Shown one piece after another: positions 13,269 through 60,034 of a stretch of DNA of 64,000 nucleotides. Each line of letters begins with the position of its first letter. The first letter of the stretch is position 1. The position numbers were made by a program, and so were the translations under genes. Source of the DNA: Chiloscyllium plagiosum (taxonomy: Eukaryota); contig NC_057753.1 of the NCBI RefSeq assembly GCF_004010195.1, forward strand, positions 8,279,309 through 8,343,308. The letters are read 5' to 3'. The notes beneath the pieces were generated by a model. That model did no database searches. It had not been told where the DNA came from and saw only the letters and a list, made by a program, of their open reading frames with translations.

Positions 13269-14188
13269 TCAGCACTTTTTGAATCGAAGTAAAGTAGTAA
13301 GTATGGTCAGTGGATATTTGACTCCATTCATTAACTCGTCTCTAAATTTCCTCTGGATTCCAGCATAAATAAATGGATTGATACCGGAGCTCAAAAACTG
13401 AAGCATGTATCCGGCTTCTTCAAGTATATATGATGACTTATTGAAATCAGAGCCTGAGAAATAAGTCACCTTTGCAATTCTAACATAAAGGATTGTTACA
13501 AAAAATAGCGAATATAACAAAATAAAACTGCCTGAAATCGCAAAAAGTAAAATCATTGACTTTTTCCGCTTCACCATCTCTGGGTCACTCTGACTCTCTG
13601 CATTACTTTGAACTCGGAATCTCCTGCGGGCCTTGTTAGCAATTAGAATGTGTCTGACGGTTAGAGCATTTAGCAGTAAAATCAGAATGAATGGGAGTAG
13701 AGGCGTTAAAATTGAACGAATCAAGTCATATGCAGCCCATGCAGGTGATGTGTAAGTTATTAATTTTGGGACACAGAACCAGGGTACATTGTTAATTACA
13801 TAAAGAGGTTCAAATACAAAATACAAGAAAACATTTTTCAGGCTGCTTAGTACACAGATGATTCCTATAACCCGCGCTGCTATCGTCTTCGTGCAATACT
13901 TTATCTTCAGCTTCTGACAACAAATGGACACAAATCGATCAAAGGTGAAAGCGACTGTCAACCATGCAGAGCTGTCTATGGTTGTGTAGATAAGGACAAT
14001 ACGAAGACTGCATATTGGTGTAATGGATAGGAAAGTGAATGGGAAGTAAATGCCAGCAATCCGATTTAATATCACAGTGATACTAATGACCAGGAGATCT
14101 GCCACCGCCATGGAAACTACATAGTAAATGATACATCCCGAGAGACCACATTGTTTTCGACACAGTATAACAATCACTGCCAAGTTAG
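13269..14188 (-). CDS. GPR139/GPR142-like class A GPCR, gene A, exon 2 (spliced product 329 aa)
   Basis: Acceptor tttcttctctccatcacAG|CT at 14189-14190, phase 1; open frame ANLAVIVIL..MAVADLL..FTFDRFVSIC..PWFC..LLNALTVRHI..INPFIY to TGA; covers the rest of TM1 through TM7. Confidence 0.93.
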
Positions 14189-14589
14189 CTGTGATGGAGA
14201 GAAGAAACATGCAACGGTTAGAGATCATTTGCATCATTTGTCGAAAGCTGGAAAGTTATTCCTCTGACTGACAACAACATTATTGGTTTCAAGAGATTCT
14301 TCACAAGATGCATGTGCTTGGTATGTCATCAAGAGATGAAACCTATCCCATAAACCAATGACAAATTTAATTGTACAATTCCTAATATTAAAACAACATA
14401 TGCCATGAAAACAATCAGTTCTTCGAGGGTAAGAACTAAAACACCAAATTCTCCAAATATCAGCCGTGTCAATGGATTGCAAATCCACTGTATTGATTTT
14501 TTATCCTTTCTTAAATTAGGAGACTCGAGCTATAATCAATAAAATAGATATGGTCTGCTCAAAACCTTAACCTTATATGCTATTCCTCA

Positions 14590-16920
14590 TGCAATAAGTC
14601 AAAACGGGTTTAAAAATGGCTGATGGAGTTGTATCTGATAAATGTGAGGTATTGCATTTGGATACAACTAACAACGGTAAAGCTTATATAATTAATGTTC
14701 GGGCTTTCGGTACTGGAACAGAGGGATCGTGGGGTGCAGGTACAGAATACTTTGAAGTTTGTGTCACATATAGACAAAATGGTTGAAAATGCATTTGGCA
14801 CACTACCTTCATTACACATTCCTTTAGGTTTAGGAATTGGGAAGTTATGCGGAGCTTGTAAGGACATTAGAACATAGAACATAGAAGAATACAGCGCAGT
14901 ACAGGCCCTTTGGCCCTCGATGTTGCGCCGATCCAAGCCCACCTAACCTATACTAACCCACTACCCTCCATATACCTATCCAATGCCCGCTTAAATGCCC
15001 ATAAAGAGGGAGAGTCCACCACTGCTACTGGCAGGGCATTCCATGAACTTACGACTCGCTGAGTGAAGAACCTACCCCAACTTCAGTCCTATATCTACCC
15101 CCCCCACCTTAATTTATAGCTATGCCCTCTTGTAATACCCGACTCCATACGCGGGAAAAGGTTCACACTGTCAACCCTATCTAACCCCCTAATCATCTTG
15201 TACACCTCAATCAAGTCACCCCTAAAACTTCTTTTCTCTAATGAAAACAGCCCCAAGTGTCTCAATCTTTCCTCATACGATCTTCCTTCCATACCAGGCA
15301 ACATCCTGGTAAACCTCCTCTGCACCCGTTCCAGTGCCTCCACATCCTTCCTATAGTATGGCAACCAAAACTGCACACAATATTCCAGATGCGGCCGCAC
15401 CAGAGTCTTATACAACTGCATCATGACCTCAGGACTCCGGAACTCAATTCCTCTACCAATAAAAGCCAGTACGCCATATGCCTTCCTCACCGCACTATTT
15501 ACCTGGGTGGCAACTTTCAGAAATCTGTGTACATGGACACCAAGATCCCTCTGCTCATCCACACTACCAAGTATCCGACCATTAGCCCAGTACCCCATCT
15601 TTTTGTTATTCTTCCCAAAGTGAATCAACTCACACTTAGCTACATTGAATTCCATTTGCCACCTTTCATTATTGGGATTGTATTATAGACCCCCAATAGT
15701 CAGAGGGAAATTGAGAAACAAACTTGTAAGGAGATCTCAGCTATCTGTAAGAATAATAGGGTAGTTATGGTAGGGGATTTTAATTTTCCAAACATCGACT
15801 GGGACTGCTATAGTGTTAAAGGTTTAAATGGAGAGGAATATCTTAAGTGTGTACAAGACAATTTTCTGATTCAGTATGTGGATGTACCGACTAGAGAAAG
15901 TGCAAATCTTGACCTACTCTTGGGAACTCTGACAATGCTGCTCTCCCTCCACACTGACCTTCTCACAATGCTGCACTCCCTCCACACTGACCCTCTTACA
16001 TTGCTGCATTCCCTCCATACTGACCCTCTGACAATGCTGCTCTCCCTCCACACTGACCCTCTGACAATGATGCACTCCCTCCACACTGTCCCTCTGATGA
16101 TGCTGCACTCCTTCCATACTGATCCTCTGATAGCGATCCTCAAAGCCATCCATTCTACTTATTTGTGACTCAGTATTCTCATCTACAATAATGCCCTGTT
16201 CCTGAGTAAATACTGAAGAAAAGTATTCATTCAGTGTCTCCCCAATCTCTTCCGGGGTCACACGCAACTTCCCACTACTATCCTTGAGTGGACCTATTCC
16301 TACCCTAGTCATTCTTTTATTCCTGACATACCTATAGAAAGCCTTAGGGTTTTCCCTAATCCTACCGACTAAGGACCTTTCATGTCCCCTCCTTGCTGCA
16401 ATTAGCTCTTAATGAGACCTGTCCTAGAATATTGTGACCAGTTGTAGTCACCTAGTTACAGCAACGATATTATCAAACTGGCGAGGGCTCAGAAGATATT
16501 TACCAGGATGTCGCCGGCAATGGAAGGTTTGAGGAAGAAAGAAATGCTGGAGAGGCTTCAACATTTTTCCCTGGAATGTAGAAGGTTGAGAGACGACCTT
16601 ATAGAAACATTTAAAACTATAAGAGTTATAGATAGAGATAATGGTGGTTGCCGTTTCCCTGAGAAGGGGATTTCCAGACAAGGGGACACAGTTTTAAACG
16701 AGCCAGACATATTTAAAAAGACATTGGACCATTTTAGTTTTCCACTGAGGGCAGTTGCATGCGGAATGAACATCTTGAAGAAATGATGAATGTGGGTACA
16801 ATGACAACGTTTGAATGGCATTTGGAAAAGTACATGAACAGGAAATATTTGAAGGGGTGTGGGCCAGAATATGGCAGGAGGGTCTAGTTTAATTTAGGAT
16901 TATGTTTGGCATCGACTGGT
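14590..16920. mobile_element. Nested CR1 cluster in the gene A intron: older + strand CR1 (14590-14868, 16410-16920) split by a composite insertion (14869-16409)
   Basis: Young minus 3' part with open ORF 15095-15655 and AGAACAT tail; + strand EN fragment 15664-15926; minisatellite; minus ORF2 piece 16131-16409. Confidence 0.8.
15927..16130. repeat. 33-bp minisatellite, ~6 copies
   Basis: Unit CTCTGACAATGCTGCTCTCCCTCCACACTGACC repeated with variants (reads as LTMLLSLHTDP repeats in the ORF track). Confidence 0.92.
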
Positions 16921-17099
16921 TGAAGCAATATTTCGTTTCCCTCAATTGTCCTCAAGCACAATCTGTAAAATCGTGGTCTGGTATATACCTCACTCAACTC
17001 TGTCTCATAAGAAAGGCTATAAATCCTGTTTCAATGGATTGTGCAGGAGGGCATGCCAGGAGCAAAAGCAGCATGACTAAAAATGAAGTGTCAACACAA

Positions 17100-20158: not shown

Positions 20159-20228
20159 CTGGAATCCCGATACCTGCAAGGACCGGATAGTAAATGGAAA
20201 ACAGCAGACCTTTTGGTGATGCATGCAT
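20159..20228 (-). CDS. GPR139-like gene A, exon 1 (MHASPKGLLFSIYYPVLAGIGIP)
   Basis: ATG at 20228; 70 bp; donor CCAG|GTAATC at 20158; phase 1 matches exon 2; homologous to exon 1 of B and C. Confidence 0.9.
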
Positions 20229-20276: not shown

Positions 20277-20306
20277 TATTTAAACACGATGTCTGGCTCT
20301 AGGGAA
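20277..20306 (-). promoter_or_regulatory. Putative core promoter of gene A: O/E(EBF)-like TTCCCTAGAG followed by TATA-like TTTAAATAA
   Basis: TCCCTAGAG at 20305-20297, 69-77 bp upstream of the ATG; equivalent motif in B and C. Confidence 0.45.
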
Positions 20307-20949
20307 ATCATTTTGATTTGCTTTTGCATTAAACATGTTTATTGTAACCAACAGCTTAGTGTTGCTGCACCTCATCAGCTGATAATGTTTTGATAGACTA
20401 AGATTGTTTTTCATTACGCAAATGTGAAATGACCAGAATTTTCCAAGCCGCATTATTTTATTATTAATAATTGCATTTGCAGCTAGGTCAGCATTGTTGT
20501 ACATGTCTTATTCAAGAGCACTGATTCGGGTCTAGAGTCATATTTGCAAAACCATGTCAGTAAGTTCCTTGTGTAAAAGGAGATAAAGAACCAGTTCAAC
20601 TTTTATAACAAGTCGGGTTCAATTCCCCACTGTTCAAATTTCCGCAGGTACCGTGGTAGCATTCAAATGCCTGCCCCAGAATACTAGACTAGGTTTCTAG
20701 CCCCGTGGCGATGCATAACCTGCCTTGTTCCCATTATTCGCTATTTTAGTCTGGGTGTTGAGTTCAGACCCGAAGCAGTGGGATTATCTCCTTGCAGCAC
20801 TGGGAAGTGTAAGCTTGCCTTCTCTTTTTTTCTGTAACTTGGATTTCAAATATACATTGCTGAACACCGCACCTGGTTTGGAATGACCATGACATCAGTG
20901 CCAATGCTCTTTTCTGCTTCATGGACGCTATGGTTCATACTGCTGCCCT

Positions 20950-22594: not shown

Positions 22595-22700
22595 GTTTCC
22601 CAAGGAAGGGTCACTTGACCCGAAACGTTAATTCCGAATTATCTTCACTGATGCTGCCAAACCTGTTTACGCTTTCCATCACCTTCTGTTTTTGTTTAGC
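22595..22700 (+). mobile_element. Penelope pLTR remnant with decayed hammerhead core
   Basis: ..GGAAGGGTCACTTGACCCGAAACGTTAA..GATGCTGCCAAACCTG; same layout as the arm at 54647-54738. Confidence 0.6.
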
Positions 22701-22729
22701 ATTTCGTGGTCTGGTACCTGGTACCTTAC

Positions 22730-24685
22730 AGAACATAATATATTACAGCACAGTACAGGCCCTTCAGCCCGCGATGTTGTGACGACCTGTGCAACCAATT
22801 TGAAGCCCGTCTATCCTTCTGTATTCCATTTTATCCATATATTTATCCGATGACCATTAAAATGCCCCTAAAGATGGCGAGTCTACGACTGTTGCATGCA
22901 GTGCGTCCAACAGCCCCGACTACTCTCTGAGTAAAGAAATTATCTCAGACATCTGTTATATATCTATTAATCCTCACTTTAAAGCTATGTCCCTCGTGCT
23001 AACCGTCGCCAACCGAGGAAAATGGCTCTCACTGTCCACACTATTTAACACTCTGATGATCTTGCATGCCTTTATTAAATCTCCTCTTAAATTTCTCTCT
23101 AACGGAAACAGCCTCAGGTCCCTCAGCTTTCCCTCCATACCAGGCAACATTCTCCTAAATCTCCTCTGAACCCTTTCCAAAGTTTGCACATCCTTCCGAT
23201 AAGGCACTGAACAGAATTGTATGCAACACTCCAAGAGCGGCAGGGCTAGAATTTTGTACAGCTGCAGTATGACCTTGCGACTCCGAATCTCAATCCCTCT
23301 AACAATAAAAGTTAACACACTATATACTTGTTAACAACGGTATCAACATGGTGACAACTTTCAGGGATCTATGTACATAGTCACTGAGATCTCTCTTCTC
23401 ATCGACACTACCAAGAAACTTACCAGTAGCCCAGTACTCTTTATTCCTGTCGCTCTTGACAAAGTGAATCACCTCACACTTTTCCACATTAAACTCTATT
23501 TGCCATTCTCAGCCCAGCTCTGCCGTTTATCTATGTCCCTCTGTAACCTACAACATCCTTCAGCACAGTCCACAACTTCATCGACCTTAGTGTCATCCGC
23601 AAATTTACTAACACATCCTTCTACACCCTCATCTAGGTCATTTATAAAAACAGCAGTGGCCTAAAACAGATCCTTGCGGTATACCACTTGGAACTGAACT
23701 CCAGGATGAACATTTCCCACCAAGCACCACCCTCTACCTTCTTTCAGCTAACCCATTTCCGCTCTAAACCGCTAAATTACGCTCAATCCCATGCCTCCGT
23801 ATTTTGTGCAATAGCCTACCGTGGGGCGCCTTATCAAATGCCTTACTGAAATCCATAAATATCACATCAACCTCTTTACTCTCATCCACCTGTTTGGTCA
23901 CCATCTCAAAGACCTCAAAGAGGTTTGTGAGACATGACTAACCTTCACAAAATCGTGTTGACTATCGCTAATCAACGTATTCCTCTCTCGATGATTATAA
24001 ATCCTATCTCTTATAACCACTTCCAAAACTTTATCCACAAGCGAAGTAAGTCTCACTGGTCTATAATTACCAGAGTTGTCTCTACTCCCCTTCTTGAACA
24101 AGAGAACCACATTTGCTATCATCCAGTCTTCTGGTACTGTTCCTGCAGGCAATGACGAGATAAAGATCAAAGCCAAAGTCTCTGTAATTGCCTCCCTGGC
24201 TTCCCAGAGAATCCTAGAATAAATCCCATCCAGACCAAGAACCTATCTATTTTCACACTTTCTAGAATTGCTAACACCTCCTCCTTGTGAACCTCAATCC
24301 CACCTAGTCTAGTAGCCGGTATTTCAGTATTCTCCTCGACAACAGTGTCATTTTCCAGTGTGAATACTGACGAAAAGTATTCATTTGGCGCTTCACCTAT
24401 CGCCTCAGACTTCACGCACAGCTTTCCACTACTGTCCTTGATTGGCCCCAATCTTTTGCTCGTCATTCTTTTATTCCTGCTATATCTCGGGAAAGCTTTA
24501 GTGTTTTCCTTGATCCTATCTGCCAACGTCTTCTCATGTCCCCTCCTGACTCTTCCTAGCTCCCTTTATAGATCTTTCCTGGCTAACTTGTAACTCTCAA
24601 GCGCCCTGACGAAGCCTTCATGCCTCATCCTAGCACAAGCCTTCTTCTTCCGCTTGAGAAGAAATTCAACTTCTTTAGTCAACAA
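22730..24685 (-). mobile_element. 5'-truncated CR1 LINE (RT + 3' UTR)
   Basis: PEDWMIANVVLLFKKGSRDNSGNYRPV, LERVQRRF, RGDLI motifs; AGAACAT tail at ~22730. Confidence 0.9.
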
Positions 24686-25466
24686 CAATCAACCACTTTC
24701 ACTATTCTACGGCAGACCTAGACAAAACCTCAAGAATGAAGAACTCTAATGAAGAGCTCAAACCACGTAATAGCAATCTCATGCGACGAATTGTTCATAA
24801 ACTACATGCCCAAGTGTTACTTCACAAAATAAACTATTTCACCGTTCATTGGGATAATGAAATTCAAGTGCTTGCGCACCACTATGAGAGTATTCCATAG
24901 ATCAGCTAATTGAACGTTGCCTTTCTCACTTCAGTGCCAGAGTGAATACATATATTACAGCCTGTCCCTTTACTGTGGTCTATTTCTTTATTATCAGACA
25001 GTTAGTTTAACACTTGGAATGTTTCATAGGGTTAAGGGCCCTAAATCATAATGGCACATATTGATGTGACGTATAGAGAAAGAGTCAAAACTGAAGATAG
25101 GTTGCACTGTTCTGAGACTCGCTTCCCCTCGCAGCAGCGCAGGATGTATTGTCCTCTGTCACAGTTTAATACAAACATAAATTTCTGTGTAGTTTAGGTT
25201 AGGCGGATTAGTCATGATAAATGCACGGATGCCGTGAATGATTCGTGAGATGAGGTACTAGGGTCTGGGTAGAGTACACTTTGGAGGATCTTTGCAGAAT
25301 CGATAAGCTGAATGTTCTCTACCTTCCCAGGAGTGGTTCTATGATTCTATGAAGACACCTGGTTCATGTCACTGAAGATCGAGCTGTAAGATATGATTTC
25401 ACACTCTCTCAGGGATATACGCCTCATTGAAATCTGCAGAGACAAATACATAGCTGCCTCCAACAA

Positions 25467-26250: not shown

Positions 26251-26607
26251 AAATGTGCTCAGCTCCATGTGAGTTAAATTAGTGCTATTCACTGAGTGCT
26301 CTCGGTGTCCTGTGGCAATGTTACTCGTGCTCTCTCACCTTAAACAAGTCCATACAATAAACAGCAGGGGAATTTACAGTCACGAATAAATGGTTTACAT
26401 TTTCACCATTACTCTGCATATATTCAAAAAAATAACTCGGGATGAGCAATACAATTATGAACCAGCACGCAACACCCATGTATGACAACATGAATGAAAA
26501 AGAAAATGATTTGCTCACCACAGGAATGAATGTGTTTAAAGTTTGTGCGAAGATTTGTAGCTCGGGTGCTCGTTGTTGTGGTTCTGTTCGCCGAGCTGCA
26601 AGTTTTT

Positions 26608-26650
26608 GTTGCAAACGTTTCGTCCCCTGGCTAGGCGACATCATCAGTGC
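26608..26650 (-). ncRNA. Minimal type I hammerhead ribozyme motif in a Penelope pLTR
   Basis: Minus strand GCA-CUGAUGA-U-GUC..GAC-GAAA-CG-UU-UGC: intact core, stem II and stem I GCA/UGC. Confidence 0.7.
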
Positions 26651-26742
26651 TTGGGAGCCTCCTGCGAAGCGCTTCTTTGATGTTTCCTCCGGTGTTTATA
26701 GTGGTCTGTCCCTGCCGCTTCCGGTTGTCAGTTTCAGCTGTC

Positions 26743-26988
26743 NNNNNNNNNNNNNNNNNNNNNNNNNNNNNNNNNNNNNNNNNNNNNNNNNNNNNNNNNN
26801 NNNNNNNNNNNNNNNNNNNNNNNNNNNNNNNNNNNNNNNNNNNNNNNNNNNNNNNNNNNNNNNNNNNNNNNNNNNNNNNNNNNNNNNNNNNNNNNNNNNN
26901 NNNNNNNNNNNNNNNNNNNNNNNNNNNNNNNNNNNNNNNNNNNNNNNNNNNNNNNNNNNNNNNNNNNNNNNNNNNNNNNNNNNNNNNN
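26743..26988. other. Assembly gap (246 N)
   Basis: Run of N. Confidence 1.
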
Positions 26989-29533
26989 CTCCTGATGTAT
27001 GATAGTGTGGCTAATCCTTTTGGTTGTGGTATGTCCTCGTTCCGTGGTCTTTCTCTTAGGCATCTGTTGATGAAGTTGCGCGGGTATCCGTTTTTGGCGA
27101 ATACCTTGTATAGGTGTTCCTCTTCTTCTTTTTGCTGTTCTGGTGTACTGCAGTGTGTACTATCATACACACTACTATCATAGAGCAAGCCAGACAGAGA
27201 ACAGCCAGGGAATTCCTAGAGGCATGGCATTCATCCACAAACTCCATCAACAAACACGTCGACCTGGACCCAATATACCAACCACTACAGCGGACTGCTG
27301 AAACTGACAACCGAAGCGGCAGGGACAGACCACTATAAACACCGGAGGAAACATCAAAGAAGCGCTTCGCAGGAAGCTCCCAAGCACTGATGATGTCGCC
27401 TAGCTAGGGGACTAAACGTTTGCAACAAAAACTTCCAGCTCGGCGAACACAACCACAACAATGAATGTGTTTATTATTGCGATTTACCGGTTAGTGATAG
27501 TCTCAGATGGTAACACGTGTTATGAAGGACGACCAAAAGAAAATCACCGAACACAGTCTCTTCACAATTGTAAGGAGTACAATTAATGTGGGATTGCAGC
27601 AATGTGGGCCTTCAGTTGAGTGAGACAAAGGCTGAATAAGTTTGGATTGACTCCTATTGGAATTTAAGTCAAAGTTGAAATTCAAGCTGGGGAAGAAATG
27701 CTACAGCTACGAATTATTGCAAGTTATAAGCATGTCTGAGCAAGAAGGGAGCGGATAAATGGTGATGATCAAGAGACCTCCCGTCAGCAGAGCACAGAGT
27801 GAAGCGAGTACCGGGAAATAGTTTACCTGAGGAGTAGGAGTGCTGAAATCGTCTATTATTTCAGTTTTAAAAAGTCATGTTTTCATTTTGTCTGTAAGCA
27901 TCCAGTATTTCTCGTCTCTCTATCAAAATGAATATTTGAATATCAACTTGAATTTTTGTCTCTGTTGACTTTAAAAGAACAATATATCCGTGCAGTGAAG
28001 AGTTTAGGGAAACTAAATTGTAAGTTCAATAAAAACGATGTGATCACCTCAAGCATAAACGTCTACAGTAGGTGCTTGCAGCTTGAGGACCCGTGGAGCT
28101 TGTGGTTGAGAGGCAGACATTTTGCCTCATCAAGACGTGGGAACGTTTCAGAACACTTTACTCCAGAAGGCTTTCAGATTTTTTAAGATTAGGTTAGTCA
28201 AAAATAAGATCAGGGACAGACTGTCCTTGACTGCAGACGAGGAAGTTGTAAAGACCCCTGAATCAAAACTAAGGAGATTCGGCCCTGCAATTATCTCACA
28301 GTTGCTATGTTTTTGTAAGCTGTGCGGACTGGAGTGGGGACAGAAAGAAGGATGTTCAAATTGACCGTGACGTCGAGGTCAAGAATAGGTGTAAGGAAAT
28401 AGGAATGCTGCTGTGTTGCATTGTTTTGTCTGCGGGAGTGAATTCGAGGGTAAAAATGAAAGTGATGTCTAAAGACGACTGTTCATTCTCCAGAATTTAT
28501 CAACAATCGAGTACCTTCCATTAATTCAAGAAGTCAAGAGCAGCGTTTCAAATGCTTGCGAAATGGAAAGGAATTTCCCATTATCTAAGAATGCTTGGCC
28601 AATGTACCTTTGCCCTGCTTCAGGATGAACCTTCAACGAAATTGCACCATATAAATGAACCATGTTATGGTGAATGGAAAATCATGTGAACAATGCCCGA
28701 AGCAAATATTTAACACATGGGACAGAGTGTACTGGAAGGGGTGAATGAGGGAATGAGCGGAAATTGTGCACAATAATTGGAATCTTGCTGAACTGATCCT
28801 TTTAGAATTGCACGTTTTTCACTGTCTGTGAAAATTGTCAAAACTGCATGTACTTGTGCAGCTCTGCACCCAACAGTACTGCATACGCAGGAATAGAAGG
28901 AATAAAGAGCACAAATTTAAAACATCGAAGGTAGCTTCGTGTACATGAGAGTCAGTCAACATCACTGACATCCGCATCCACTGTCAGAGCTCCTTCACTT
29001 GTCGCTGTGTCAAAACCCTGGAATTCCCTTCCTGAGTGAATTGTGTGTCCTCCGACAGCAGCGAGTCAATAATACAGCTGACTACCATATATTGCTAGGG
29101 CCTGGCCTAAATGCTGGTTAGCCATAAATACTGACATCCTGCCAGCAAACAATAATAAGAAAGTGACAAATTGTATACGGTTCACCTTGCCATATCTGAA
29201 ACACGATCCTGTTCATGATTGATGATGTTTTGCATCTCCCTTCAGAATATTTCTGATAATTATACATTATCGTCAGGTTACTGAACCGTTATTACGGTCT
29301 TTTCATTCTTCTTCATTTATCGTATTCATTTGTTCATGACTGCAATGGTTTATGAATTTTTGGTTAACATTTGTGTGGAAGTGCTACCAGTATCACAATG
29401 TAGTTGATGAGCATTTCACTGTAGCGGTGCGCCAGTGTACCTTGAAATATTTAATTATATCTGTTTGATGGCAGTTCTGCAAAAAGAAACGATTTAATTA
29501 GCAAGAAGCACGCTAAAACTAAATGGTCTACTT

Positions 29534-29564
29534 ATTCCCATGAGTCTGACTTCACTTATAAATA
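29534..29564 (+). promoter_or_regulatory. Putative core promoter of gene B: O/E(EBF)-like ATTCCCATGAG and TATA box TATAAATA
   Basis: TCCCATGAG 29536-29544 (75-83 bp upstream of the ATG); TATAAAT 29557-29563; homeodomain-type TAATTA ~29495. Confidence 0.55.
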
Positions 29565-29618: not shown

Positions 29619-29688
29619 ATGCACGGACCTGCAAAAGGATTGGTTTTTGCTATTTACTATCCTTTCCTTGCAGCTTTTGGGATCCCAG
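29619..29688 (+). CDS. GPR139-like gene B, exon 1 (MHGPAKGLVFAIYYPFLAAFGIP)
   Basis: aaaATG at 29619; 70 bp; donor CCAG|GTAAAG; phase 1. Confidence 0.9.
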
Positions 29689-32639: not shown

Positions 32640-33550
32640 CTAACTTGGCAGTGATCATGATCTTGACACGAGAAAGATGCGGTCTCTCTCGATGTATAAT
32701 GTATTATCTGGTATCCATGGCAGTGTCAGATCTCCTGGTGATGATCACAGCAGTGATATTCAATCGGATTTCTGGTATTTATTTCCCAGTCAGCTTCTTG
32801 AACATCACACCAGTGTGTAGTTTCCGTTCTGTATTAAACTACGTTATCATAGACAGCTCTGTTTGGTTAACTGTTGCTTTCACCTTTGATCGATTTATAG
32901 CCATTTGTTTCCAGCAGCTGAAAATTAAATATTGCACTACGAAGATGGCAGCGTGGTTCATAGCTATTGTTTGGACACTGAGCTGTGTAAAAAACACATT
33001 TTTGTATTTTATATATGAACCTCTATACGTAATTAACAATGTTCCTTGGTTCTGCAGCATAACGTCAATATTTTATACATCACCAGCATGGACTGCATAT
33101 GACTGGATTCATCACATTTTAACTCCTTGTCTCCCATTTGCTCTGATTTTACTCCTAAATGCTCTGACTGTCAGGCACATTGTACTGGCCAATAGAGCCC
33201 GCAGGAGACTCTGGAACCAGAGTAAAGGAAAGGATCAGAGGGACTCAGAAATATGGAACCGGAAGAAATCCATTACTTTACTTTTCTGTGTCTCTGGCAA
33301 TTTCATCCTATTGTATTTACTGGTCCTTGTAACATTCCTCTATGTCAGAATTACGAACGTCAATTATTTCTCTGGTGCAAATTTTACAGAATCTAATTTT
33401 ATTCTGGATGAAAGTGGATTCATGCTTCAGCTATTGAGTTCCTGTGTCAACCCTTGCATTTATGCAGGCACCCAGAGTAAATTCAGAGAAGAGCTTAAGA
33501 TTGCGATGTACTACCCACTAAATCGCATAGTTAAGTTACTTAAGCAATAA
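32640..33550 (+). CDS. GPR139/GPR142-like class A GPCR, gene B, exon 2 (spliced product 326 aa)
   Basis: Acceptor gtcttcctttcaattacAG|CT at 32638-32639; ANLAVIMIL..MAVSDLL..FTFDRFIAIC..PWFC..VNPCIY..TAA. Confidence 0.93.
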
Positions 33551-43575: not shown

Positions 43576-45517
43576 TGTGGAGGAGAATTTAGCTCCCATC
43601 TGGAATTAGCAGCCATCTGGTCACATAAACTGGTCTTACAGGACAAAGCTAGACCTGCCGACATGCCCTCTGAGAGTAGTGTTGCCTTAGCTGTTAGCTA
43701 AAGATAACCTTGCGACTATTTATTGGGGCCAGGCTTAAATGTTACGTTGCCTGGAAAAACTTTGGGATGTTGTAAGGACCATCAGCCTCCCAAAGTCAAG
43801 GTGCGACAGCTACCAAGCACTTACACGGCTTTGTCCCCTACTGCTCCGCCACCTCCTCCCCTCTGCCCAATACCTCCCAATATCCTAAAGTGCCCCTCCC
43901 TACCTCAGAACTCTGAGAAGTCGCAGCCATCATCGCGACACTTACAGTGGTCTCCTTCCATTACCCGGTTATGAATGGAGGGGCTGCGCAGCTACTTCCT
44001 AACAATGATGCGGTTCTGTACGATCGTCTGGGGTCGGCATCGGGCTGTCATTACCGTCCGACTCCTCATGAGTCAACACCCGACACCAACCCTCCTACTC
44101 AAAGCACCAGTTCTCAATCTGCGCATCTTAATTGACCCTGTCTCATGATAGACAAGGTCCACTTTGACAAACCCTGACCTCATGCTGAGATCCGCGGCAC
44201 ATTCCTGGACGCCTTGATCCGCTGAAGTGCCCAGGTCCTTTTTGCTACTGGCTGCTACAGACTTGTAATATCGAAAATTGCTTGCCACAAGATGTAAATA
44301 ATTTGTTGCACTTGCCTTATGGTACCCGCTGGTCATTAAAAATTCAGTGGCTTTCCCCGCCACCCCCTGGGGCTCCACAGTGGCCAGGGAACGGTGAAGG
44401 AGACCGAAAAGCCAGCTGTATTGTTCGCTGCACGGCAGCAGGTGGATTTTCAGGAGGTCACGTGCCATCTCCAAAAAACTCATGCAACCCTACCTGACTT
44501 TCTCGCATGCTTTAAGGAAGTTTGAGAATCCTCTGCGGGTGCTGTCCTCTCAGACAATCATAGATTGGAAATTCAGCGTTTGTTAACTGCATGCAGTCTT
44601 GCTATGCACACATTTGTAAGTCCATCAAACCTTGACTGGCATTCCAAAACCTGGGAGTAAATGCCCACTTGGCTCGCTAGTATGCATCAGCAAAGCCTTT
44701 TCGAGTATACCAAAGAAAAAGAGACGTTCTCACGTGTGCCGTCAACACCTTTTCCCCGGTGTCCAACTGCGGAGAGGGCGCAACATCAACAGTGCTGGGA
44801 AGGACAGCACTTGCAGCGCAAGGACATTAATTAGGACCAGTGTCAGGCCTGTGGCACTTTGGCCATTGGGCACAAGATTGTCAGGTAACTTCCTCCCCAA
44901 CACCATCGTTTCCTCAGCCTGACCTTTCATTGCGATGGTGCACCCCGCCAGCTACCTTTTTGGTCAACAACCCTTTCCTACACGACCTGCAGTCACAGAG
45001 CTGCTGCATGAGGGAGGTCCTGCAGGTCACTTCAATGTGGCTCTCCTATTCCCCATGCAAAACCCCATGATGGATATAGAAATGGGTGATCGACTTTTTT
45101 CGGTTCTGGTAGACTCTGGAGCCACAGAGCCTTCTGCGCCTCCCTTAGCGGGCCTTCCCCTTACATCTGATACCGTTCACACTGTGGACATCTCTGAACT
45201 ACCCTTGGTTGAACCCCGCGCTGTCCTTCTTCCGATCAAGGTAGAGTCCCTTTGAGTCATTGACGTACTGTTGTCTCCCCTTCCTGCCCCGTGCCCCTAT
45301 GTTGTCGCCATCTTACCTTTGAAATCCCTCACTCCCAATTTCCCCTACTACAGACTGCCATGACTACACTGTCCCCGCCCTCTTCACCACTCTCCCCTTA
45401 CTCTTGGTCAGTTTGTCGCAATCCTGTGCGCGTGTTCCTTTATTCTGCCTATACAGAGCCCCTCCCTCTCCACTTGCAAACTTCCTGACATGGATCTTTA
45501 AAACCGGCTGAATTTTA

Positions 45518-48082: not shown

Positions 48083-50375
48083 ATGGATGACAGGTGAAAT
48101 TGTGAGACGATCAAAAAGGAAAATAGAAGCATACACAAGGGTTCGGCGACTAAAGACAGCCAAAGCTTTGGAAGAATATCGAGAATGCATGCCAATCTGA
48201 AATGAGGAATGAAGACGGCTGAAAGGTATCATGAAATATCTTTAGCAAACAGCGTTAAGGAAAATCCCAAGGCCTTTTGTTCATTTGTAAGGAGCAAGAG
48301 GGTAAGTAGAGAAATAATTGGCCCACTCAAGGCCAAAGGCGGAAATTTATGCGTGGAGTCAGAGAAAATGGGTGAGATTCTTAATGAGTACTTTGCATCA
48401 GCATTCACCGAGGAGAAGGACATGACGGATATTAAGGTTAGGGATAGATGTTTGGTTACTCTAGGTCAAGTAGGCATAAGGTGGGAGGAAGTGTTGGGCA
48501 ATCTAAAAGGCATTAAGGTGGACAATTCCCCGGGTCTGCTAGGATTTATCCCAGGTTAATGAGACAATTGAGAGAGGAAATAACTGGGGCCTAAACAGTT
48601 ATCTTTTCAGCATCCTTGAACACATGTGAGGTCCCGGAGTACAGAAAAGTTCCTAATGTTGTCTCCTTGTTTAAGAAGTGCAGCAGGGATAATCCAGGTA
48701 ATTATGCTGTGGTGATCCTGACGTCTTTGGTAGGGAATCTACTGGAGAAGATATTGACCTATTCCCATTTGGAAGAAAATAGGCTTATCAGTTATAGGTA
48801 ACATGGTTTTGTGCAGGGAAGGACATGTCTTACCAACTTAATCAAATTCTTTGAAGAAATGATAAATTTGATTGATGTGGAAAGGGCTGTAGACGGCATA
48901 TATATGGACTTCAGTAAGTCGTTTGATCAGCTTTCCCATGGTAGGCTGATGGAAAAAGTGAAGTTACATGGAGTGCAGAGTGTATTAGCTAAATGGATAA
49001 AGAACCAGCTGGGTAACAGGAGACGGACAGTAGCAGTGGAAGGGAGTCTTTCAAAATGGAGAACTGTGACCAATGGTATTCCACAGGGATCTGTCCTGGC
49101 ACCACTATTATTTGTGATATAGATAAACAAATTGGAAGAAGGTACTGCTGGTCTGATTAGCAAGTTTGCAGATGACACTGGTGGAGTGGCAGATGGTGAA
49201 TGGTGATGGTGGTTGGTGGACTGCCAGAGAATAGAGCAGAATATAGATGGATTGGAGAATTGGTTGCAGAATTAGCAGACGGATTTCTATCCAGGCAAAT
49301 GCGAGATGATGCATTTTGGAAAATCCAATTCACGAGCGAACTGTACAATAAATGGAAAAGCCCTGGGGAAAATTGATGGACCGAGAGATCTGGATATTCA
49401 GGTCCATTCTACCCTGAAGGTGGGAATACAGGCCAGTAGAGTGGTCCAGAAGGCATACGGCATGCTTTCCTTCATCGGACGGGGTACTGAGTATGAGAAT
49501 TGGCAAGTCATGTTACAGTTGTATAACACCACGTTTGGAATACTGCGGACAGTTCTGGTCGCCATATTAACAAAAGGGTGTGGATGCTTTGGAGGGGGTA
49601 GAGAAAAGGTTCACCAGGATGTTGCCTGATATGAAGGGCGCTAGAAATGACGACAGGCTGAGTATATTAGGATGGTTTTCATTAGAAAGACGGATGTTGA
49701 GGGGGGATCTCATTGAGGTTAACAAAATCATGAGAGGTCTTTACAAGGTGGATAGCAAAAAGCTTTTTTCCAGACTAGGGAACTCAATTACCAGGAGTCA
49801 CCAAAATTAACAACACACTGTAATGCCTGACGAACATGAATAATGATAACTTCTCTCAAGGAGGTTGTAATAACGTCGAGGCAGCAGGACGTAGGTCTCA
49901 TAGAGAAGATGAACTCTGACAGGACATGACGAAAACATGAGAGAACCTGGACCAGGTCTCATGACGAAAACATGAGAGAACCTGGACCAGGTCTCAGAGA
50001 AAGAGCATTTTAGAATTCTTTTGTACAATGGGCTAGTGGTGGGAGAGAAACAAGTCGAGGCAGCTGATCAGATTGTCTCAATCTTAGTGACAATTCAATG
50101 AGATCAAGGTGAGCCGGAAATGTTTAAGGGAGATATGCGTGGCAAGGCTTTTACACAGAAGTGTTGTGTGCCTGGAACGGGTTGCCAGAGGAGGGGATAG
50201 AGGCCAAGAGGATAGTGTCATTTACGATGTATCTGGGCAGATACATGAATGGGCACAAAACAGAGGAATACAGATCCTTAGAAAATAGGTGACAGGTTTA
50301 GACAGACAATCTGGATTGGCGCAGATTTGGAGGGTCGAAGGACCTGTTCCTGTGCTGTAATGTTATGTGTTCTTT
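48083..50375 (+). mobile_element. Continuation of the host CR1 (ORF2 RT + 3' UTR)
   Basis: Resumes (W)MTGEIVR after the TSD; CLTNLIKFFEE, GIPQGSVL, SKFADDT; interrupted at 49799-50100. Confidence 0.88.
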
Positions 50376-50826
50376 GTTTTTGGTCTGGAATGGAACTATA
50401 TTCATCAGGATCAATTTCTGCTGATGTTTTGCTCAGTCACAGGTACTAATATTGGGAATCGTCAAATGAATCAGCTTTGGGTCCAACACACTGTCTGCCT
50501 GAATATTTTAACATATTTACACTGCACTTTGAAGAGGTTTTCCTCCCTCCTGTCTTTTCATTGAATTGTCACTAAGATTGAGACAATCTGATCAGTTGCC
50601 TCGACTTGTTTCTCTCCCACCACTAGCCCATTGTAAATGTGCATTCTAAATTACTCTTTCTCAGAGACATGGTCCAGGTTCTCTCATGTTTATCGTCATG
50701 TCCTGTCAGAGTTCATCTTCTCTATGAGACCTACGTCCTGCTGCCTCGACCTTATTACAACCTCCTTGAGAGAAATTATCATTATTCATGTTCGTCAGGC
50801 ATTACAGTGTATTGTTGATTTTGGTG
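49799..50826. repeat. Inverted repeat, arms 49799-50101 and 50558-50826; left arm carries a 35-bp tandem duplication
   Basis: Direct reverse-complement match (ORFs 49807-50028 - and 50637-50906 + share FSETWSRFSHV); CATGACGAAAACATGAGAGAACCTGGACCAGGTCT x2 at 49925 and 49960. Confidence 0.92.
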
Positions 50827-54196: not shown

Positions 54197-54524
54197 AAAA
54201 ATATAGTGAATGGGACTATTAGAGGATATAGCAGAATATAGATAGATTGGAGAGTTGGCAGAGAAATAGCAGATGGATTCCAGTCCAGGCAAATGCGAGG
54301 TGATGCATTTTAGAAGATCCAATTCATGAGCGAACTGTACAGTAAATGAAAAAGCCCTGGGGGAATATTGATGTACAGAGATAGCTGAGTGATCAGGTCC
54401 ATTCTTCCCTGAAAGTGGCAACGTAGGCCAATAGAGTGGTCAAGAAGACATTCGACATGCTTTCCTTCAGTGCACGTGGTATCGATTGCAAGAATTGGCG
54501 GGTCATGTTACAGTTGTATAATAG

Positions 54525-54738
54525 GAGAAAGTGAGGTCTGCAGATGCTGGAGATCAGAGCTGGAAATGTGTTGCTGGAAAAGCGCAGCAGGTCAGGCAGC
54601 ACCCAGGGAACAGGAGAATCGACGTTTCGGACATAAGCCCTTCTTCCTGAAGAAGGGCTTATGCCCGAAACGTCGATTCTCCTGTTCCCTAGATGCTGCC
54701 TGACCTGCTGCGCTTTTCCAGCAACACATTTTCAGCTC
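54525..54738. mobile_element. Penelope-derived fold-back mini-element with 16-bp TSD
   Basis: ~90-bp arms (54556-54645 and 54650-54739) are near-perfect reverse complements; TSD TACAGTTGTATAATAG at 54509-54524 and 54739-54754. Confidence 0.88.
54644..54679 (+). ncRNA. Minimal hammerhead ribozyme core at the fold-back apex
   Basis: UC-CUGAAGA-A-GGGC UUAU GCCC-GAAA-CG-UC-GA. Confidence 0.65.
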
Positions 54739-55924
54739 TACAGTTGTATAATAGTTTGGTTCAGCCACATTTGGAATACTGAGTACAGTTCTGGTCGCCA
54801 TGTTACCAAAAGGATGTGAATGCATTGGAGAGGGTGCAGAGTAGTTTCACTCGGATTTTGCCTGACATGGAGGGCGCTAGTTATGAAGAGAGGCTGAGGA
54901 GATTAGGATTACGTTCATTAGAAAGATGGAGGGTGACGAGGGTCCTGCTTGAGGTCTACGAAATCATGAGAGGCATAGAGAGGGTGGATAGCAAGAAGCT
55001 TTTTCCCAGAGTGGCGGACTCAGTACTAGGGTTCCCGAGTTCATAGAACATAGAACATAAAACATTACAGCGCAGCATCGGCCCTTCGGCCCTTGATGTT
55101 GCACCGACCTGTCTTACCAATCTGAAGCCCACCTAACCTGCACTATTCCATGTACTTTCAAAGTGAAAGGGGAAAGGTCTAAGGGAGAAATGCCCGGAAA
55201 GTTCTTCACGCAAAGGGCACTGGGTATTGTAACACATTGCCAGCAGAGGTGGTAGGGGAGGGCACAATAGCGTCATTTAAGATATATCTAGACAGATAAT
55301 GAATAGGTAGGGAGCAACGGGGTACAGACCATAAGGAACTAGGTGACAGGTTTAGAGAGAAAATCAGGGTCAGCACAGGCTTAGACTGTCGAACGGCCTG
55401 TTCCTGTGCCGTAATTTTCTTTGTTCGTTGTTCTCTGTATGTCCCTGTGCTTCTTAACTTCAGGCTGATGATATAACTCTGAACAAATAAATTACACAGG
55501 AGATGTCAGAGTTGTAACTCGTGATGTGAGAACATCACACATAGTGTCAAGAGGCTACAGACAACCATGTATGCTTTGTGAATGAATCCGGAGTATATGA
55601 GTACAAACCACATCCTCAGTTGATGCGCGAAGGGAAAAAGCGCTCAACACATGATGGAAGTTTGTGTATATCAAAAAAAAATCCCATGCTGAATGGCTGT
55701 TCAGTGCTAATGGTAAAACTATGCAGCCTCAAGGCAGATTGAAACTCACTGGTTCTGACAATAGATTAACGATGTGAATGACTTGCAACACCATTTTGAG
55801 TGTTAATACCTTTTAGTATATTTATACTTTTCATATGGTTTTGTAAATGCATGGAATTTTGAACGGAGGTCAGACATAAGATAATCAAATTAAATCATGC
55901 AGAATTCATTCTGCATTTTTCTTT

Positions 55925-56835
55925 TCAAAATTTAAAACACTTAACGAAACTTCGTACTGGATAATTCAATCCATTTTTAAATTCCTCTCTGATTTTACTT
56001 TGTGTCACAGCATAAATAAATGGATTGATACAGGAACTCAATAACTGAAGCATATACCCACTTTCCTGAAGGAAAGATAAGGAATCAGTAATAATGGAGC
56101 CTGAAGAGTAACTGATACTCCTGATTCGGACATAGAAAGTCGTCACAAAATATAACAAATATGAAAGAATGAAACTTCCTGAGATGGCGAAGAGTAAGAC
56201 AATAGATCTGCGCCGCTTCTCTGTCTCTGGGTCACTCTGTTTCTCTCCATTGCTCTGCGCTCGGAATCTCTTGCGGGTTCGATTGGCTGCTAGAATGTGC
56301 CTGACAGTTAGAGCATTGAGCAGTAAAATGAGAATGAAGGGTAGACAAGGAGTTAAAATGGATCGTAAGTAGTCGAATGCAATCCATTCAGGTGATACAT
56401 AAAACATTAATTTTGGTTTGCAAAACCAGGGTACACCATTCAGCGTGTACAAAGGTTCAAATAGAATATACCAGAAGGCATTTTTTAGACAGCTCAGTGC
56501 ACAAACAGTTCCGATAACGCAGCCTGCTGTCTTCCCTGTACAGTATTTGATTTTCAGCTTCTGACAACAAATTGCCACAAAACGATCAAATGTAAAAGCG
56601 ACTGTTAACCAAGCTGAACTATCTACAGCTTCATAAATTAATGCAATACGAAGACTGCATACTGGTGTGATGGACAGAAAGCTCAATGGGAAAAACATAC
56701 CGCCAATGCGGTTTAACATCACGGCCGTAATGATGACCCGGAGATCAGCCACTGCCATGAATACGAGATAGTACGTAATACCTTTGGACAGCCCGCATGT
56801 TCTTCGAGACAGTATCACAATCACTATCAAGTTAG
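55925..56835 (-). CDS. GPR139/GPR142-like class A GPCR, gene C, exon 2 (spliced product 326 aa)
   Basis: Acceptor ctcctattctcgattacAG|CT at 56836-56837; ANLIVIVIL..FTFDRFVAIC..PWFC..INPFIY..TGA. Confidence 0.92.
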
Positions 56836-57444
56836 CTGTAATCGAGAATAGGAGTGGGACAAATAGAATTAATGCCTTATTGGATTAAGAATGAAACATT
56901 TAGTTTAACCACCCATGAAAACATGTCACTGTGTTTTGTATCGAATAAATAACTTCATAACTGTGACCTGGATTTATAACTATCTTTTGAATGAGCAAAT
57001 AAAAATAGTTTTCTGCATGAAATAATCAGCTAACTTAAAGACAATCTGCGTAGTGATGCAGGAATTGTCAAAAAATAGTCAAATAAAATGGAAACACGAA
57101 AACATTTCAAAGAAAAAAAACGTCAAAACCATGGGGGAATAGGTGTAATAGATTGCATAATGGCAAAAAAGTGATTAATAAGCAAATTAAGTGTCAATGC
57201 AAAGAACAAAAATGACAATCAGTCAAGGAATATTGATTTTTCTGTGGTTCACAAAATAGCGTCATTCAGCAATTATGATGAAATCGGTCATCCTTACAAA
57301 TACCTGTGCTCAGCAGTTCACGTCTCACAGCTGAGGCAACGAGTTTTAATTTCAAATGCCCACTATATGACTAAAAATCTGACAACGCATCATAGTTTTG
57401 AATGTCAAATAATAAGCGGGCATTTCTTCAAATGAGATCTCATG

Positions 57445-58023
57445 TCACAAAGCTGGTTTCTTTTTATTTAACAGCTGTTCCTTTTCTCACGGTTACTATG
57501 TCCGCGTTTTTTTTCAAAGGGATAATAATTCGCTCTTGGTTCGTATAGTCTGGTTTGGTACAGAGATTAAAGGGTGTTGAGAGGCCTTTTTGTTTACATG
57601 TAAACAGATGAGACTTCAGGCCAAAGTAGTAATGCTTTAAAAGTGACCTATATTTAAAAAAGGGACTGGTCAGCTCTCTCGCTGAGCAGTTCAGTCTAGA
57701 ACTAGTTGCGAGCAGGCGTGCTCTCTCTTTCTGCCCTTCTAAGTTCAACCTGTAAGCGACTGTTCCATTTTTTTAGTTTTTTTTTAAAGGAGGTTTGCTT
57801 ATTGGGACTGTTGTGCGTATTCGGAACAGTATAATTAAGTCTAGGTTCCTTATTCTGTTATTTGTGCTTCATTGTGTAATTTTGTGAATAAAATTCGGTT
57901 TGTTTTGAAACGTAGAAGTCAACCTAGCTAAATTATCCGGGGTAATTTTCACAATAAACTTACCAAAACAAATTCCAAAGTTATGGTCTAGGCTGCCAGC
58001 TTAAGAATGTTTTGACTGGTCTG
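57445..58023 (+). mobile_element. Probable LTR remnant in the gene C intron
   Basis: TATATTTAAAAAGGG promoter-like tract and downstream AATAAA in LTR-like order; termini and TSD not resolved. Confidence 0.4.
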
Positions 58024-58145
58024 GGAGAAAGTGAGGACTGCAGATGCTGGAGATCAGAGCTTAAAAATGTGTTGCTGGAAAAAGCGCAGCAGGTCAGGCA
58101 GCATCCAAGGAGAAGGAGAATCGACGTTTCGGGCATAAGCCCTTC
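58024..58145 (-). mobile_element. Single Penelope pLTR arm, same family as the 54525 fold-back
   Basis: GGAGAAAGTGAGGACTGCAGATGCTGGAGATCAGAG..GACGTTTCGGGCATAAGCCCTTC, near-identical to 54524-54643. Confidence 0.85.
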
Positions 58146-59074
58146 CAACAGTTATCATCTTCCAGTTACAGTCATTCAGATAAGACATGACTAATGCCAG
58201 ATGAATATCACGTGACGAGGTTACATTCTTTGCTCAATACTAACTAATGATTCATGTTTTCTCAGCTTGCAGTGAAAATGTTAGTACGTAGCAAAAAAAA
58301 ACCCAGTCACGTGATAGTCACCTGGCATGGTTCATGCCGACCTGAACATCTGTAAATGGGTGATGATCAGATCTCATCAGGAGAAATGTTACTTATCAAT
58401 GGGCATTCTTAAAACTGTACTGTGCTGTTGTCAGATTTTTACTCATGTCGTGGGCATTTGAAATCATTGCTTGAGCTATGAGACAGTTTAGCTTTATTCA
58501 TTCAGCAGAAAATAATGAAAATGAGGATAGTTGTAATATTGGCAGGAGAAAAGGACGGGGAATAATTCGTGTATTTCAGTACATGGAAGTGAAAAGCAGC
58601 CAATTGAGAGAAGAAAGTGAAATAACAGTCTACTTTAAGAAGCAAGGACCTGACAGCGGTTTGCAGAATTGAATAATTTAGCTCAAGTAAAAGTTAAACT
58701 TTCTAGAAACAGCAATTCTTGCAATTCTTATACGTTCTTCCAAAGTTGCAGCACCTTTAATATCCATTCAACAATTTCATTCATAAATTCATGATTTATA
58801 CAGAAATTTAATTCTCGTCTTAAATGTATAATTTGTGTGAATCACTATGAATGTTCTAATAATATATCCATCGTTTCAAATATTTAAGCAGCAGTGCAAA
58901 TAACATAACAGATTCGTATTTACCTTGGTCACATTTGTAATAAAGCATCAGTTGTAACATTACCAATGCAACAGTAGGCACAGTTCAATAAAGGAATAGT
59001 AGGTATCATGATACTAAAGTTTCAAAAGCGACAATAACGTCGGTGATAGATATGTGACAGACGTCAGAATAGCT

Positions 59075-59265
59075 TCTTTACTTAGAGATTAGGAGGGGTG
59101 TGGAGTGCACTGCCAACTTCAAGGGCATTTAAATGATCATTGGATAAACATACGGATTAAAATGGAATAGTGTAAGATAGATAGGCTTCATATTGGTTCA
59201 TTGGTCGGCACAACGTCGAGGCCCGAAGGGCGTATAGTGCGCTGTACTGTTCTATGTTCTATAAC
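59075..59265 (+). mobile_element. CR1 3' stub
   Basis: 3' UTR and TTCTATGTTCTAT tail. Confidence 0.75.
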
Positions 59266-59964
59266 AATATGATTCTATATGATAACTGAGTGATTATTCA
59301 CAGATGGCAATTGTGGCATTAACACTGTGGACATAAACTTATACCATGGCATTTTTGCATTAACGCATCGGTAATAATAGTTTGGACAATAAAATAAAAT
59401 ATCATTTACACTGTGAAAACAATTTCAGAGTCACACAAAAATCCAGTTCAAGCATGAAAACTCACATTATCAATGAGAGTTAGCAGCATTGAATGGAAGG
59501 AATTCGATTTCTGAATGGTGAGAATTGTTCTACTCATACGTTCATAGCACACAAATAAAAATAATGTGAACAGATTAACCCGCGTTCATGTCCCACCTGC
59601 TCCACATCTGTGTAATAGAATGTCTGGACAGGTTGATAAGAAAAACAAAAATGACTAAACTGAGGACCCGGAGCAGCGAAGCTATTACGGTGGACTGTTT
59701 TATATATGCTACTGATAAATCATGAAGATGAATTATATCTTTAAAATATAGAGTTGATATACTTCGTAAGATTTAAAGCGAATCTAATGTGAAGAACAAC
59801 ACCTACCAATTAAGAAGAAGCAATTCTGGATGCATCAGCTAAATATTTTATTTTAGACAGGAGAATAAATACCAGTATCACAGATTCACAGCTGGTGTAT
59901 TCGGAGAATTAATATTACCAATCAACAACTCATGCAACTCCAGCTCCGCACATTTTACTTGTAC

Positions 59965-60034
59965 CTGAAAATCCGATAATTGCAAGAACAGGGTAATAGA
60001 TGGAAAACAGGAGACCTTGTGGTGACACATGCAT
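59965..60034 (-). CDS. GPR139-like gene C, exon 1 (MHVSPQGLLFSIYYPVLAIIGFS)
   Basis: ATG at 60034; 70 bp; donor TCAG|GTACAA at 59964; phase 1; clear homology to exon 1 of A and B. Confidence 0.88.

Follow-up and report, generated by a model that had tools for sequence, protein, structure and literature searches.

Passages of published surveys credit cartilaginous fishes with 20–62 olfactory receptor (OR) genes (PMC10869828, PMC10116579), at an average of 43.8 known genes (PMC10869828), and explain the keen smell of sharks by a trade-off that favours sensitivity over discrimination (PMC10869828, PMC10116579). Part of the text of a whale shark study likewise speaks of G protein-coupled receptor (GPCR) paucity in these fishes and reports MAS1-related receptors as missing (PMC8455134). 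For the receptors GPR139 and GPR142, passages of PMC5430874 tie activation by tryptophan and phenylalanine (Trp/Phe) by mutagenesis to F3x33, H5x43, W6x48, and N7x38, and model R6x51 as a polar contact for these ligands. Here we describe three receptor genes (A, B, and C) in a window of 64,000 nucleotides from the shark Chiloscyllium plagiosum (C44:8279309-8343308, where C44 is contig NC_057753.1; positions in the window count from its first letter), together with the very large shark and ray family to which they belong. We consider it somewhat better than an even chance that this family is an olfactory receptor repertoire of independent origin.

Six-frame translation and tblastn recovered three large exons encoding most of a seven-transmembrane (7TM) receptor and three 70-bp first exons in the window:

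20159..20228, minus strand: gene A exon 1, 70 bp, with the ATG, the N-terminus, the first half of transmembrane helix 1 (TM1), and a GT donor
13269..14188, minus strand: gene A exon 2, the remainder of the 7TM receptor, ending at the stop; intron 5,970 bp; protein 329 amino acids (aa)
29619..29688, plus strand: gene B exon 1, 70 bp
32640..33550, plus strand: gene B exon 2; intron 2,951 bp; protein 326 aa
59965..60034, minus strand: gene C exon 1, 70 bp
55925..56835, minus strand: gene C exon 2; intron 3,129 bp; protein 326 aa

The predicted splice sites are GT..AG in all three genes, with a phase-1 intron in TM1, and the spliced frames of 329, 326, and 326 aa contain no internal stops. Each protein carries DRF and an NPxxY motif (NPFIY in A and C, NPCIY in B) and matches Pfam 7tm_1 at E values of 1e-20 to 1e-23; the structure model of a close relative (P0030) has seven helices plus helix 8 (predicted local distance difference test score 71). 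By these sequence features, A, B, and C are class A (rhodopsin-like) GPCRs. Assignment to the classical OR family was rejected, as the OR profile 7tm_4 matches one of the three window proteins, below the cut-off, and the genes have two coding exons instead of an intronless coding region. The proteins share 60–67% pairwise identity, with a synonymous divergence (dS) of ~1.0–1.2 and a nonsynonymous divergence (dN) of ~0.23–0.26; from the identity and dS, they are old duplicates kept by purifying selection. RefSeq models of shark relatives start with an equally short N-terminus.

An earlier note on this DNA had described a tandem cluster of three intact two-exon receptors with a 70-bp exon 1, a phase-1 TM1 intron, DRF, and NPxxY, standing amid transposon debris. 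All of these gene features were recovered, and the open frames do lie in DNA that is otherwise chiefly LINE-type and other repeat fragments. The genes form a cluster but are not arranged head-to-tail: the strand order is minus, plus, minus, so that A and B are divergent and B and C convergent. The GxPAN signature claimed for TM1 does not extend to gene C, which has GFSAN, and the short N-terminus is a property of the window's subfamily only, since a second abundant class of exon 1 encodes a variable N-terminus of 50–100 aa. The pattern of variation held in part. Columns identical across A, B, and C make up 72% of TM5, 71% of intracellular loop (ICL) 1, 67% each of TM3 and ICL2, and 50% of extracellular loop (ECL) 2, falling to 37% in ICL3, 36% in TM4, 29% in ECL3, and 25% in helix 8; TM3, TM5, ICL1, and ICL2 are thus conserved and ECL3 is variable, but ICL3, TM4, and helix 8 are variable too, ICL3 and helix 8 to the same degree as the outer loops. 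Gene C has an arginine in TM2 (DLRV) in addition to lacking the proline of GxPAN, and it may be drifting despite its open frame. A proline at position 6.50 of TM6 is nearly universal among class A receptors; it is replaced by L, V, or T in A, B, and C and in both subfamilies counted, and its loss may have altered the activation mechanism.

The window lies in a multi-megabase array. With gene B as query, a genome search scored 129 loci, none below 60% identity. Of these, 83 are on C44, where 79 gene-B-like loci are spread between 1.5 and 8.8 Mb (~7 Mb), separated by a median of 41 kb. A query from each of two other subfamilies added 131 and 135 loci, with identity ranges disjoint from those of the gene B set. 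A hand count of full-length, stop-free exon 2 loci over the three queries (116, 113, and 99) comes to ~330, a lower bound because each genome search scores only the best candidates. Genome-wide, a TM3 motif has 2,003 matches against 169 for the reversed control, and an exon-1 donor motif has 1,792 against 0; the two counts are mutually consistent. In a non-random sample of 40 of the first 100 listed TM3 hits, hand-picked from contigs C4, C5, C7, and C8 and passing over most isolated hits, 39 are family members and 15 are full-length and stop-free, the others being broken, truncated, or gapped; this share suggests several hundred intact exon 2s. Overall, the motif counts suggest a total of ~1,800 motif-bearing copies. 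The number of complete genes is less certain than the number of exon 2s. On C44, 53 of the 71 listed exon-1 hits have a partner exon 2 no more than 25 kb away, and 46 of these are stop-free; away from C44, many exon 1s of the long-N-terminus class have no exon 2 within 50–60 kb, and for some exon 2s no exon 1 lies within 50 kb. This mismatch may reflect very long introns, orphan exons, or combinatorial use.

At E≤1e-3, 1,819 catalogue proteins match the family. All named ones among the top 120 come from sharks, skates and rays are also represented among the family-bearing entries, and a protein identical to one family locus is labelled Chiloscyllium plagiosum; the names are automatic, such as "probable GPR139". 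The idea of a lineage-expanded family evolving by birth and death is therefore borne out by the copy counts, the mixture of intact and broken copies, and the array: far from few copies, the genome holds hundreds of intact exon 2s.

Selection was analysed with our own codon-grid likelihood model and by pairwise counting, after the extracellular regions had been delimited from motif anchors. The sets analysed were a young subfamily (78 sequences, the stop-free ones among the best hits to locus L060) and the window's subfamily (32 sequences). In the young subfamily, 33 of 296 sites have dN>dS at a posterior above 0.95 under variable dS (2dlnL 201), and 31 of these 33 fall within the 106 extracellular codons (Fisher p=2e-13), at ECL1, at the ECL2 hairpin, and at the top of TM6, ECL3, and TM7. 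By counting, dN/dS is 0.93 for the extracellular codons versus 0.29 elsewhere (core bootstrap 0.24–0.41). A tree built from core columns only yields 31 sites, and null simulations yield no such sites in three of three runs. The extracellular loops of this one young subfamily are hypervariable and under positive selection. A third subfamily, with 18 of 30 loci usable, has a weaker signal of 4–5 sites. Within subfamilies, deep-pocket positions are nearly fixed, including acidic residues at 3.37 and 5.39.

An alignment of the sequences upstream of A, B, and C first hinted at a common promoter element, which was then characterized in 73 promoters of the window-type subfamily (70 of 134 exon-1 pattern hits plus A, B, and C). 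Its consensus, TAATTA-NN-TCCCTGGAG, is a composite of a homeodomain-like site and an O/E (EBF)-like site. Its position peaks at 86 bp upstream of the ATG (27 promoters at exactly -86), and a TATA-like run follows 12–13 bp downstream of the composite. In leave-one-out scoring, 62 of 73 promoters pass 10 bits, as do none of the 73 far-upstream windows and 2 of the 73 shuffles. The 73 flanks fall into 40 mutually unalignable clusters, 34 of which are composite-positive. A strict pattern of composite plus TATA has 11 matches in 3.56 Gb and none in the control; nine of the matches lie in the C44 array and the other two a few kb upstream of family exon 2s. The elements in the window are as follows:

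20297..20313, minus strand: gene A composite, homeodomain-like plus O/E-like, 17.8 bits; TATA-like run ~12 bp downstream
60102..60118, minus strand: gene C composite, 18.7 bits; TATA-like run downstream
29535-29544, plus strand: gene B O/E-like site TTCCCATGAG; homeodomain half degenerate, composite below threshold
29557-29564, plus strand: gene B TATA box (region 29535..29564)

Passages of the respective papers report an enrichment of O/E, homeodomain, and TATA sites in the OR promoters of the mouse (PMC3247239), give YCCCNNGGGR as the consensus for O/E and TAATNN as the core for homeodomain sites (PMC8213819), and describe mouse OR enhancers as marked by a composite of adjacent Lhx2 and Ebf sites (PMC5608512). 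The EBF 9-mer of the mouse probe is one base off the shark consensus. Judged from the sites, the likeness of the shark element to those of mouse OR genes is architectural, not exact, and we take the predicted element as independent, circumstantial support for a chemosensory role, which the earlier note had proposed from the receptors themselves. On 20 exon 1s of other classes, the promoter matrix gives best scores of 3.9–17.6, mostly within the background for such windows (median 7.2, 90th percentile 12.4). Members of the long-N-terminus class (L311, L314, L319, L321, and L327) have a related element, TAATTA..CCAGTGGA, ~300–400 bp before the donor; in some of them it is followed by TTTTAATGA, a sequence similar to the extended homeodomain site in mouse OR enhancers. 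As the copies concerned are close relatives, their elements are not independent.

The exon-1 class with an N-terminus of 50–100 aa includes loci L212-L222 and L311-L327 (for example at C8:2.70-2.76 Mb and C5:31.2 Mb). Two such exon 1s on C8 face each other in an inverted duplication, and in the interval 0–8.4 Mb of that contig the listed exon-1 hits are about four times as many as the TM3-motif hits. Exons of the young subfamily (L113-L128 and L170-L177) lie in collinear duplicated units of at least 28 kb, ~83% identical, on many contigs, and 0.3–3 kb upstream of exon 2 there are 65-bp and 40-bp tandem arrays. Carriage by a transposon was considered and rejected for this subfamily, as no long transposon open reading frame is common to eight units, which have the appearance of large segmental duplicates instead. 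Nor do allelic duplicates account for the set of 78, since no pair exceeds 98% nucleotide identity. No exon 1 was found within 30 kb in four young units or within 50 kb in two; some other young copies have listed exon-1 hits 22–46 kb upstream.

The earlier note had also placed the genes close to GPR139 and GPR142, and here the evidence points the other way. A motif search located the genome's own GPR139 (L076 on C21) and GPR142 (L079 on C24), and A, B, and C are only ~20% identical to these orthologues. In two trees, of 50 and 26 rows, GPR139 and GPR142 form a separate clade (100/100 in both), and the approximately unbiased (AU) test rejects a shared clade with the family (p=0.0003). The 26-row tree recovers the shark and ray family as a clade (97/94), with a long-branched salamander gene as its sister (99/99); in the 50-row tree, the node joining family and salamander gene is unresolved inside a 100/99 clade. 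Next outward come a coelacanth and teleost group with one shark orthologue on C26, and then a lamprey and anchovy group. The C26 gene (L232, at 36.60 Mb) is the lone shark orthologue of a coelacanth orphan receptor, with 64% identity and the same TM1 intron, and is an unstudied conserved sister gene. The bony-vertebrate relatives may be the GPR210 (GPR210A/B) orphans named in a passage of PMC6504862; coelacanth and teleost genes are among the relatives found.

At the positions linked to Trp/Phe, the family mostly keeps an aromatic residue at 3x33 (Y/F). In both counted subfamilies R6x51 is changed to F/Y/L and N7x38 to Y/F, and P6x50 is also lost; W6x48 is mostly Y in the window's subfamily, and 5x43 is variable. 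The acceptor of the TM1 intron precedes the A-N codons in GPR139, as it does in the family and in the C26 gene. Foldseek returned class A receptors, among which TRHR, NTSR1, GALR2, and GPR139 score alike with none standing out; the best solved structural matches are peptide receptors, and the ESM Atlas yielded nothing beyond automatic names for the family itself and 7TM clusters of invertebrates. On sequence and phylogeny, the family is separate from GPR139 and GPR142, and amino-acid sensing of the GPR139 type, part of the earlier proposal, is unlikely because the orthologues are separate genes at ~20% identity, the shared clade is rejected, and Arg6x51, Asn7x38, and Trp6x48 are absent.

The genome thus holds intact two-exon genes in an array, broken paralogues, a coding core under purifying selection, and a promoter element at a fixed position. 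If the family is olfactory, the composite would be bound by an Lhx2-type homeodomain factor and an EBF factor, which would activate the genes in olfactory sensory neurons, each cell probably expressing one gene or a few; duplication with diversification of the loops would widen the range of ligands. Peptides, or larger water-borne molecules of other kinds, would be likelier ligands than free Trp/Phe, given a deep pocket conserved within subfamilies, variable sites around the outer rim, and peptide receptors as the nearest solved relatives. A more specific version, to which we give a little less than even confidence, is that sharks and rays have an olfactory family of their own, derived from an orphan peptide-receptor gene that is low-copy in bony vertebrates, and wired to the Lhx2/EBF programme of gene choice through a composite in each core promoter.

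Several observations weigh against an olfactory repertoire. Lhx2 and EBF are putative factors, named from the resemblance of their sites, and the resemblance is imperfect: against the shark matrix, the core of the mouse composite probe reaches only 3.1 bits, the probe has its homeodomain site on the opposite side of the asymmetric EBF site, the O/E-like site is a variant that fits the strict YCCCNNGGGR in only one of the 73 promoters, and gene B has the O/E-like half and TATA without the homeodomain half. EBF and homeodomain factors are, moreover, also active in B cells and in other neurons. The grid model behind the 33 selected sites ignores gene conversion, and synonymous rates are also raised at hypervariable sites. 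Site-wise dN/dS, strong in the young subfamily and weak in the third, gives no site-level positive selection among the 32 sequences of the window's own subfamily (2dlnL 1.7), where counting finds 0.22 for extracellular codons versus 0.17 elsewhere (p=0.10; 0.34 versus 0.24 in close pairs).

The evidence from transcription is likewise limited. In run X7 (single-cell RNA, with the tissue given as a code), 224 of ~13 million records fit one exon of the young subfamily, with a sense pile-up at the 3' end, past the stop; their mixed identities imply that several paralogues were read. These reads belong to a subfamily other than the window's, include intronic and antisense ones, and contain no splice joint, and run X8 from the same sample has no reads, so that X7 documents low-level transcription only, in a tissue-coded run. 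The contig runs X9 and X13, which are presumed RNA and contain pieces running across the intron, were excluded from the count. At L087:1362-1783, antisense reads with poly(T) tails cover the start of exon 2 and share a common loose end at 1783, which suggests an antisense transcript from some paralogues. In the catshark, olfactory neurons are reported, in a passage of PMC10116579, to be all microvillous and of V2R type, and the part of PMC11979771 that gives a top-50 list for "brain & olfactory epithelium" includes no GPCR, although sparse receptors are not expected in such a list anyway.

The main rival, which we regard as unlikely yet deserving serious attention, is an immune-cell repertoire that senses pathogen, parasite, or self peptides in the manner of FPR and other chemoattractant receptors and is driven in leukocytes by EBF1 and E-proteins. 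Between 4 and 17.6 Mb of C37, family loci, at least 40 in number, are intermingled with major histocompatibility complex (MHC) class I exons, and the sawfish MHC chromosome likewise has 13 "probable GPR139" genes (supplement of PMC10751288), at least 10 of which lie among or beside MHC-Ib genes; a search of the main text of that paper for GPCR terms found no occurrence. Immunoglobulin (Ig) C1-set domain exons adjoin the window's array at C44 0.58-1.36 Mb and lie near copies on C39:27.7-27.8 Mb, C49:5.93 Mb, C10:94.0 Mb, and C8. The MHC interleaving and the Ig neighbours keep the immune explanation alive, and they indicate either an immune role or shared duplication-prone regions; as most copies lie away from the MHC, the co-location may reflect only the latter. 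MHC-linked OR clusters in mammals offer a parallel. Loop hypervariability resembling that of complementarity-determining regions would fit an arms race, and the E-box CAGCTG is modestly enriched in the promoters (17 of 73 versus 5 of 73), but octamer, RUNX, ETS/PU.1, interferon-stimulated response element, and NF-kB patterns show no enrichment in the 73 promoters, and a fixed TAATTA beside an EBF-like site is the olfactory pairing. Expression in non-olfactory sensory cells, such as trigeminal or dorsal-root neurons or chemosensory cells of the skin and mouth, with a role like that of MRGPRs, is in our judgement quite unlikely. EBF and homeodomain factors do occur in many sensory neurons, a peptide-receptor fold with outer-rim variability would suit such cells as well, and the reported lack of MAS1-related receptors noted at the outset would leave room for a substitute; against this, RUNX sites are not enriched, and the promoters carry the elements that are enriched at OR genes.

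It is also conceivable, though very unlikely, that the expansion arose largely as a side effect of segmental duplication and that few members are functional, acting in endocrine or neural peptide signalling as their single-copy relatives do. The collinear young units on different contigs are of this kind, more than half of the sampled copies are broken or truncated, and many exon 1s lack an exon 2 within 50–60 kb, and vice versa. What weakens this explanation is the core dN/dS, 0.29 in the young subfamily and ~0.2 in the window's, together with promoter motifs that persist where flanks no longer align and an expansion common to sharks and rays. Finally, the genes could be co-orthologues of GPR139 and GPR142 that sense aromatic amino acids through the same pocket, which we find scarcely credible: the TM1 signature, the intron position, the aromatic residue at 3x33, and the automatic names speak for it, but the separate orthologues, the AU rejection, and the loss of Arg6x51, Pro6x50, and Asn7x38 in both counted subfamilies, and of Trp6x48 in the window's, speak against it.

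Elsewhere in the window, decayed LINE-type reverse-transcriptase fragments (1400-10500, 14870-16400, 22700-24700, and 48200-50400) and two short pieces resembling long terminal repeat retroelements (12233-12460 and 44923-45252) were labelled by eye. There are two N gaps (12465-12964 and 26743-26988), the second of which is flanked by a 173-bp inverted pair (26570-26742 and 27293-27464), and a 184-bp near-palindrome (94.6%) lies at 54556-54739.

We found no paper describing the expansion in the literature searched, which was mostly open-access; the white shark genome paper lay outside its scope. The family is not mentioned in the passages covered of PMC11979771 (main article, without its supplement), PMC7677710, PMC12208981, and a Greenland shark preprint, nor in passages and 12 of 24 supplements of PMC8455134. 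The genes are already known under automatic names, and their description as a family was not found in this literature. Should the olfactory interpretation be correct, hundreds of intact genes would outnumber the known shark OR, TAAR, V1R, and V2R genes combined several times over, and the paradox of few receptors and a keen nose would be an annotation gap. The published OR counts, the trade-off explanation, and the paucity of GPCRs would be overturned, vertebrates would have one more independent origin of a chemoreceptor repertoire, and Lhx2/EBF control of such repertoires would date to early jawed vertebrates. If the immune rival were correct instead, the family would be a very large, unstudied set of innate receptors linked to the MHC.

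Compared with known systems, the family resembles the OR, TAAR, V1R-ORA, and V2R-OlfC repertoires in organization: a very large clustered family with birth-and-death evolution and many pseudogenes, compact genes, a promoter combining homeodomain, O/E, and TATA sites, and MHC-linked clusters. It differs from them in not being homologous at the family level, in having an intron inside the coding region, in placing its variable sites on the outer loops and not in the deep pocket, and in carrying the composite in each core promoter and not in distant enhancers. With GPR139 and GPR142 (human structures 7vug and 9m42) it shares the class A fold, the YY..L...G.PAN motif of TM1, and membership in the wider group of orphan and peptide receptors, and with GPR139 a phase-1 intron at the identical TM1 codon. 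However, GPR139 and GPR142 lack the TM3-ECL2 cysteine pair and the ECL2 hairpin that are both present in the shark family (the hairpin as predicted), were found as one copy each versus ~1,800 family copies, form their own clade at ~20% identity, and retain the Arg6x51, Asn7x38, and Pro6x50 that the family has lost. Among the bony-vertebrate orphans (salamander P0334/P0508, coelacanth P0341, and silverside P0351), the salamander gene is the sister of the shark and ray family; these receptors are 28–31% identical to A, B, and C and, in contrast to the family, apparently low-copy.

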